DNA of 64,000 nucleotides, from positions 36,890,001 to 36,954,000 of the forward strand of contig OX597825.1 of assembly GCA_951406725.2 (NCBI GenBank), read 5' to 3'. The notes below the pieces were generated by a model that saw only the letters and a list, made by a program, of their open reading frames with translations, had not been told where the DNA came from and did no database searches. Shown in pieces: positions 9,154 to 10,252 of the stretch. The DNA comes from Octopus vulgaris. Lineage: Eukaryota. The translations under genes and the position numbers were made by a program. The stretch's first letter is position 1. Each line of letters begins with the position of its first letter.

Positions 9154-9263
9154 ATATATATATATATATATATATATATATATATATATATATATATATA
9201 TATATATATATATATATATATATATATATATATATATATATATATATATATATATATATATAT
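9154..9263. repeat. (TA)n microsatellite
   Basis: Direct reading. Confidence 0.97.
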
Positions 9264-9485
9264 AACTAATGTAGGATAAAGTTTTTTTCGGGAAAAAAAA
9301 ACTTTATCAATGGCCAGCATATAAAAAAATACCTTTAAAGGTTAAATTTATAAACAATTTACAAAAATAAGGGCAAAAGAAAAATTCTAATGCCAAATAT
9401 GCCGAAAAAAAGACAAAAATTGTCAATAACCATTATATTTTATGCGTCTCGAAACAAACCGATAGAAATTTCTAAAAATCCGTTA

Positions 9486-9546
9486 TTACCGTATTGGTCC
9501 CAATTTCGGGGTTAATTCATAAGAATTTTCCCCTCTTCAGCGATAA
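9486..9546 (-). ncRNA. Type I hammerhead ribozyme, intact core
   Basis: Minus strand: ttatcg-CTGAAGA-gggg aaaattc ttat gaattaa cccc-GAAA-ttgg ga ccaa-TA-cggtaa; stems I, II and III all pair. Confidence 0.88.
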
Positions 9547-9823
9547 ATACGTGAGATGTAAATGAAATACTTACTCATACTCATGGAAAAAGCAAGTACT
9601 TTTACTCCCGAAAAAAACTTTATCCTGCATTAGTTATAGATTTAATAGTGTTCACTTCCGTATTCTCTCACTCTGTGAAAGTTTCTAGTTCGAATCACAC
9701 GTGTCTCGACATGTGCCGAAGATTTTCTATTTTGGATATATTTGGGGTACTTAAGTCTGCTCAGGACTTAGTACTTGCTTTTTCCATGGGTATGAGTAAG
9801 TATTTCACTTATATCTCACGTAT

Positions 9824-9884
9824 TTATCACTGAAGAGGGGAAAATTCTTATGAATTAACCCCGAAATTGGGACCAATACGGTAA
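9824..9884 (+). ncRNA. Type I hammerhead ribozyme (second copy; mismatch at the first pair of stem I)
   Basis: ttatca-CTGAAGA-gggg...cccc-GAAA-ttgg ga ccaa-TA-cggtaa. Confidence 0.82.
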
Positions 9885-10252
9885 TAACGGATGTTTAGAA
9901 ATTTCTATCGGTTTGTTTCGTGACGCATAAATTATAATGGTTATTGACAATTTTTGTCTTTTTTTCGGCATAGTTGGCATTAGAATTTTTCTTTTGCCCT
10001 TATTTTTGTCAATTATATATATATATATATATATATATATATATATATATATATATATATATATGTGTGTGTGTGTGTATGTGTGTGTGTGTGTGTGTGT
10101 GTGTGTGCTACATAAATAATATTTTAATAAACAAACCCGAAATTGTCGCTTCAAACCGGATAATATCATTACGATGCATATTATACAGTTATATATATAT
10201 ATATATATATATATATATATATATATATATATATATATATATATATATATAT

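Follow-up and report, generated by a model that had tools for sequence, protein, structure and literature searches.

Inverted, 5'-truncated copies with a tail on one side only are the standard layout of Penelope-like element (PLE) insertions (PMC8557442; available parts of PMC3846280). Head-to-head inversions have been attributed, in the accessible portion of Arkhipova 2013 (PMC3846280), to self-priming on an antisense template, and in vitro the Poseidon element PAc of Anolis primes on both strands, uses two start sites that bound a tail and takes uncleaved RNA as its template (Frangieh 2024, PMC11167929, available sections). Pairs of hammerhead ribozymes on opposite strands, 100–700 bp apart, have been described in PLE remnants of Schistosoma mansoni (Cervera and de la Pena 2014, PMC4209133, available sections). 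Non-LTR retrozymes, proposed in the accessible part of Li et al. 2026 (bioRxiv 10.64898/2026.07.22.740005) to be non-autonomous derivatives of PLEs, have units of 350–390 bp in mussels according to the available text of the non-LTR retrozyme papers (Cervera and de la Pena 2020, PMC7229834; Li et al. 2026), and consensus lengths of 51–972 bp are given in that of the latter. No paper on an octopus hammerhead repeat family was found in the literature searched, and published supplements could include the family; octopus is absent from the main text of PMC7229834 as available, the words hammerhead, ribozyme and retrozyme are absent from the available main text of an O. vulgaris repeat paper (PMC13282606), and a search on Penelope-like twin priming with inversion returned only apparently unrelated matches.

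The locus described here lies in a 64-kb stretch of Octopus vulgaris DNA (the window, meaning the whole stretch analysed) and consists of two back-to-back copies of a common, octopus-type hammerhead repeat of ~470 bases inside a TA microsatellite. It resembles insertions of EN+ PLEs (PMC8557442; PMC3846280, available parts) in its head-to-head inversion, partial tandem, one-end extension, (TA)n target and hammerhead in the repeated end, and differs from them in that it has no internal ORF and a tail of ~88 nt as against the published 30–40 bp. Segments are named in ribozyme-sense order: A is 9637–9769, B is the arm, C runs from 9355 down to 9300, and T runs from 9299 down to 9263 and is found again at 9600–9636. 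The features are as follows.

9155–9264, no strand: (TA)55 run on the left side of the probable insertion target.
9263–9299, minus: segment T of the left copy, whose 3' (long) end merges here into (TA)n; inverted match to 9600–9636.
9275–9308, minus: 14-bp hairpin within the tail; the 5' end of the right copy (9600) corresponds to a point inside this hairpin.
9300–9355, minus: segment C, part of the ~88-nt tail, present at the left end only.
9342–9353, minus: 12-nt motif TTATAAATTTAA, copy 1, exact; the short 3' end of the family falls on its TATA.
9356–9600, minus: left arm, made of segment B; its 5' truncation lies at the inversion junction, close to 9600.
9486–9546, minus: type I hammerhead, stems intact, predicted cut 9492|9491.
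9600–9636, plus: segment T of the right copy, forming its 5' start.
9634–9645, plus: 12-nt motif, copy 2, 11 of 12 positions; crosses from T into A and corresponds to the long 3' end site.
9637–9769, plus: segment A, the spacer between the arms, covered by contigs and joined to B in all four public runs.
9770–10014, plus: right arm, again segment B, which stops in (TA)n close to the position of the short 3' end.
9824–9884, plus: type I hammerhead with an A-C mismatch at 9829, predicted cut 9878|9879.
10014–10063, no strand: (TA)25 run on the right side of the probable insertion target.
10256–12145, plus: neighbouring 5'-truncated, decayed Penelope-like reverse transcriptase (RT) with a C-x4-C-x2-C linker plus GIY-YIG at the C terminus.

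Pairwise comparison within the locus aligns the two inverted arms without a gap and with identity at 236 of 245 positions, in agreement with the ~245-bp arms of the original prediction; the nine differing sites amount to a drift of 3.7% between the arms, or 1.8% per arm. The additional inverted repeat that had been placed at 9261–9293/9606–9639 exists, with its coordinates shifted slightly to 9263–9299/9600–9636 (34 of 37 positions matching). The left copy runs B-C-T into (TA)n over 338 nt of the minus strand and the right copy T-A-B into (TA)n over 414 nt of the plus strand, their 5' ends meeting at ~9600. This inverted, 5'-truncated, head-to-head arrangement, with its 88-nt tail at one end and with (TA)55 and (TA)25 abutting the two outer ends, is the Penelope-type layout that had been proposed; loose ends in (TA)n also occur in other copies of the family, as expected of an AT-rich or (TA)n target. 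No target-site duplication is readable within the (TA)n, and inspection of the six frames of 9263–10013 by eye revealed no PLE-like reading frame. One contig of the run X1, which is possibly the source sample, matches 9571–9690 with no differences and has 30 letters to the left of the junction, where the bridging rule is 31, so that misassembly is an improbable source of the inversion junction.

Each arm contains CUGAAGA and GAAA, together with an AUA triplet for cleavage and a 12-nt stem III that is nearly palindromic, and stem II is a 4-bp GGGG/CCCC helix extended by a 2x2 loop and an inner 5-bp hairpin; the anatomy first proposed for these ribozymes is thus present in both arms. In the minus hammerhead (read from 9546 to 9486) stem I is paired at all six positions, one of them a G-U, as had been claimed, and the cut foreseen between 9492 and 9491 is where the motif anatomy would place it, the plus equivalent being 9878|9879. 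The plus hammerhead has an A-C mismatch, a CpG-type change, in place of the first stem I pair. Both copies are of type I, with the conserved core CUGANGA/GAAA/NUH, three stems and an open stem I, the plus copy being without that first pair. A full hammerhead descriptor found exactly two sites in the window, both in the arms, as compared with a mean of 0.01 matches in 200 locally shuffled windows (one match in two of the 200, two matches in none). Since the two hammerheads are one duplicated sequence, they count as a single motif. Rfam gave no hammerhead match on 9265–10012 even at E<=10, only four weak matches to other models; because both arms match the descriptor, this miss is read as a gap in the Rfam models. 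Over the whole window, the best 150 of 287 Rfam matches are microsatellite-driven miRNA and snoRNA assignments. Four loci with a hammerhead pattern in metagenome contigs were rejected as chance matches, none being similar to the unit or to the RT.

Information on the spacer and the extra repeat comes from contigs of four public runs with three organism labels, which were aligned to 9265–9769 (505 bases). The numbers of fitting contigs were 5842, 4431, 3091 and 355, and all 30 bins of this interval were covered in every run, so the spacer (segment A) is family sequence and not unique DNA. Joints between A and B (9590–9600 to 9763–9769, on opposite strands) were found in four of four runs, as were divergent T-A pieces with 4–23 differences. 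Among the 15 of 55 joints listed, C-T-A joints occur in two of the four runs, namely X3, with three contigs at 9295–9612 (the shorter side reaching as much as 63 letters) and one at 9301–9619, and X7, with a single contig. Combined with the T-A-B and B-C-T order in the window itself, these joints would close a unit of 133 + 245 + 56 + 37 = 471 nt, a closure that we infer from separate short contigs of different copies and not from one molecule. The suggestion that the extra inverted repeat represents the tail and start of a tandem unit is thereby upheld. The depth of contigs is highest over tail segment C (9299–9349) although many copies end earlier, which is possibly due to contig fragmentation; summed contig depth is in any case not a copy number. 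None of the runs listed is recorded as RNA, and X15, which may be RNA or DNA, is given no weight as a sign of transcription.

From these alignments the repeat family appears to be a high-copy, non-coding unit of ~471 nt with one type I hammerhead motif per unit, and non-LTR retrozymes are likewise built of a short non-coding repeat bearing a single type I hammerhead. The likeness to these elements, as described in the available text of PMC7229834 and bioRxiv 10.64898/2026.07.22.740005, extends to a low GC content, a large number of copies and self-closing; unlike them, the octopus locus is without two consecutive complete hammerheads in tandem, and its 471 nt exceed the 170–400 nt given in 2020 (PMC7229834, available text). 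The octopus element would work like a non-LTR retrozyme, with incomplete membership of that group. No unit attached to an RT/GIY-YIG ORF was seen among the 24 of 728 loose-end matches listed, and an ORF-bearing form of the family may exist, given that 24 of 728 loose ends, 15 of 55 joints and 40 of 56 variants are listed.

The family also has two 3' end sites. The loose-end consensus before 9364 begins with TA repeats in three of the four runs and is mixed in X1 (among the 24 of 728 loose-end matches listed), and other copies of the family end near 9350, followed by (TA)n, at about the same point as the end of the right arm. The left copy extends 88 nt beyond this short 3' end. Each of the two end sites, separated by 88 nt, lies on the TATA of a copy of the 12-nt motif, and the odd base of motif copy 2 (9639) is A in 98–100% of the family depth. 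With at most one mismatch the motif has only four occurrences on both strands of the window, the two end sites included. Because it was defined after the ends had been seen, it serves as a lead rather than as a test; its presence at both end sites hints at homology-guided priming at two sites. By eye, a candidate TATAAA lies at 9635–9640 (with the family base at 9639) and candidate Inr-like words at 9652 and 9668; a sigma-70 promoter scan was set aside as inapplicable to animal DNA.

The family copies also differ within the ribozyme. Among the 40 of 56 variants listed, eight positions fall within the 61-nt motif and none at the 11 invariant core bases, N7 varying in two ways. A pair or wobble is retained with the stem variants at 9495, 9508, 9510, 9543 and 9544, and those at 9531 and 9510 would together convert a G-C to an A-U (27–45% and 17–38% of depth, unphased), a change that is likely compensatory. 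The variant at 9526 belongs to the internal loop, and some family copies lack one G of stem III. In the three larger runs G>A at 9508 accounts for 29–36% of depth; it would replace the conserved G10.1-C11.1 pair by a weaker G-U. Avoidance of the core is non-significant (hypergeometric P=0.18), and the variation weakly suggests selection on the ribozyme fold.

Folding calculations indicate what these ribozymes could do. As a monomer, the minus hammerhead would adopt the ribozyme fold at −13.0 kcal/mol, compared with −14.6 kcal/mol for the minimum free energy structure, and this fold makes up 1.7% of the ensemble; for the plus hammerhead the share is 0.15%. Swapping stem III between two molecules gives −36.3 kcal/mol, whereas two monomers together give −23.0 kcal/mol (both values exclude stem I), and these dimer-favouring energetics match the design described for animal PLE hammerheads in the available part of PMC4209133. 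The octopus pair shares with those of Schistosoma described there the placement on opposite strands (octopus cores 290 bp apart) and a palindromic stem III suited to dimers, but the Schistosoma hammerheads are minimal, whereas in the octopus hammerhead stem I has 6 bp, stem II is extended and stem III, of 4 bp, is able to close within a single molecule. The full transcripts of the two strands fold at −427 and −430 kcal/mol into one long hairpin of 245 bp, and enforcing the ribozyme fold within them costs 91–92 kcal/mol. Because the arms diverge, transcription of either strand makes the antisense arm before the sense ribozyme, and with a ribozyme fold that costs ~91 kcal/mol the expected outcome in read-through RNA is double-stranded RNA (dsRNA) rather than cleavage. 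Since the two ribozymes are on opposite strands, they cannot dimerize in cis. Of the two consequences originally drawn for transcripts of either strand, the long dsRNA therefore stands as a prediction, whereas a cleavable site is not expected from these models; for cleavage, an RNA would have to start between the two arms and would probably also need the assistance of a protein or of a second molecule.

These data are probably best explained by a single insertion into (TA)n of a non-autonomous Penelope-like element of the non-LTR retrozyme type, leaving two head-to-head, 5'-truncated copies of a ~471-nt unit, with a Penelope-type RT/GIY-YIG likely provided in trans. A Penelope-type endonuclease, acting in trans, would nick both strands of (TA)n, and each nick would prime cDNA synthesis from one of two start sites in the element RNA, which are separated by 88 nt and both lie on the UAUA of the repeated 12-nt motif. 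The left cDNA would be 338 nt and the right cDNA 414 nt, crossing the ribozyme cut site by 109 and 279 nt; since both cross it, the template would have been an uncut precursor, a multimer or a circle. The truncated cDNA ends would then be joined head to head to give the inverted repeat with its tail at one end. Within this explanation the insertion process left the divergent ribozymes behind as a by-product, and they are not a device. The right arm carries a minor family variant, at 9562, that is absent from the left arm, which could mean that two templates were used. The locus data do not tell priming on both strands at two sites from the antisense self-priming described in the available part of PMC3846280.

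A more specific version of this history is that the family primes both cDNAs by pairing nicked (TA)n to the UAUA of the duplicated 12-mer, which sets the 88-nt tail, on a circular 471-nt hammerhead RNA; we regard this as possible but doubtful. The octopus locus would share with PAc, as described in the available sections of PMC11167929, two RT start sites that bound a tail, an AT-rich target and an uncleaved RNA template. Unlike the octopus end sites, which are UAUA within a repeated 12-mer and could pair with TA, PAc primes in an AC-rich stem-loop without homology to the target. If true, a Penelope-type protein that targets TA would carry out twin priming on a circle under the guidance of homology, as opposed to the homology-free priming of PAc.

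The source of the arms must also be weighed against the neighbouring RT, whose ORF lies 242 nt past the right arm on the same strand and with its GIY-YIG might suggest, as the original prediction did, that the arms are the pseudo-LTR (pLTR) of that element. More generally, the arms could be the 5'-truncated pLTR of an autonomous PLE family, possibly that of the neighbour, with T-A being a recurrent partial-tandem junction and not part of a short unit. Inverted pLTRs upstream of ORFs are indeed typical (PMC8557442), and two loci in genome contigs (L006 and L005) that contain relatives of the RT have a hammerhead ~155 nt and ~200 nt (the latter by eye) after the end of the ORF, near the 193 nt that separate the start of A from the hammerhead core here. 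However, the hammerheads of these relatives are of minimal types, unlike the octopus hammerhead in type and with no sequence in common with the octopus unit, and neither of the two loci, nor the one weak relative in viral contigs, resembles the unit. The unit showed no similarity to the RT region or to the 39 nt that follow the RT stop. The 12-nt motif runs across the T-A junction, which is expected of continuous sequence. The RT itself starts near residue 127 of a relative of 753 aa, with its own (TA)31 run and other microsatellites in front of it, and has eight stops in 623 codons and at least three frame changes. Its decay of ~9–12% is about five times the 1.8% per arm, and its eight stops compare with 1.2–1.7 expected at the divergence of the arms (P 4e-4 to 3e-5; P 0.002–0.018 at the upper bound of arm divergence), a comparison which assumes that the RT was intact on arrival. 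The adjacent RT is therefore likely to have entered the same TA-rich patch in a separate, earlier insertion, and the assignment of the arms to it is not sustained; a pLTR of some autonomous family is unlikely, and a family-level link between unit and RT is possible. An RT domain, a CX2-5CxxC linker and GIY-YIG at the C terminus are features of Neptune/Nematis-type PLEs (PMC8557442), to which the RT is assigned by these features and not by a tree, so that Neptune and Nematis are not separated; its closest near-length relatives are Octopus bimaculoides and O. sinensis proteins with 76–84% identity.

Two other explanations fare less well than insertion of the two copies in one event. The inversion could have arisen after insertion, by fold-back repair or inverted duplication in an older tandem copy, or two independent insertions could have occurred in the same TA run. 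The nine differences between the arms, the variant at 9562 in the right arm only and a short self-complementary stretch at the junction would fit with this, but the arms agree at 21 of 24 family variants checked, so both come from one subfamily, no TA target lies between the arms, and the outer ends fall at the two 3' end sites of the family; we consider an origin of this kind very unlikely. Octopuses edit dsRNA heavily, and with a 245-bp hairpin predicted on either strand the locus might have been co-opted by the host as a dsRNA substrate, for endo-siRNA or A-to-I editing, or as a bidirectional ribozyme switch. Co-option is hardly credible here, as the arms have drifted by 3.7%, one ribozyme is without a stem I pair and the layout is the normal by-product of PLE insertion.

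Several further motifs and elements were observed. In the window, an unrelated minimal hammerhead motif (12886–12941, plus strand, core 12901) with a 4-nt palindromic stem III lies on the strand of the RT, ~750 nt past its stop. This motif is similar to those that follow the RT relatives and could be the RT element's own end, with other repeats between. A third minimal hammerhead motif, of yet another sequence family, is found at ~13915–13955 (minus strand, core 13950) beside a (TA)n run, which makes three hammerhead families within 5 kb of the window. A LINE-type element at 1379–5055 (minus strand) has an open RT frame of 955 codons along with a zf-RVT frame and seems young, and LINE pieces at 24584–28278 on alternating strands (endonuclease plus, RT minus, zf-RVT plus) look like an internally inverted copy. 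The two RT relatives in genome contigs are animal-type Penelope elements on small contigs within bacterial assemblies (SUP05 cluster, Bacteroidota MAG), and several protein matches are labelled as bivalve symbionts; the presence of these elements in bacterial assemblies is likely host contamination.

On the single-insertion reading, the octopus locus is a routine decayed insertion whose layout is already in print, and its divergent ribozymes, being set in inverted arms, should silence themselves in read-through RNA if the predicted folds hold. What the locus points to is an abundant octopus-type hammerhead repeat, the thousands of copies of which could test the choice of start sites by PLEs and the copying of circular RNA. 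If the family does prime by TA pairing on a circular template, cephalopods would gain an abundant circular RNA of the retrozyme type.
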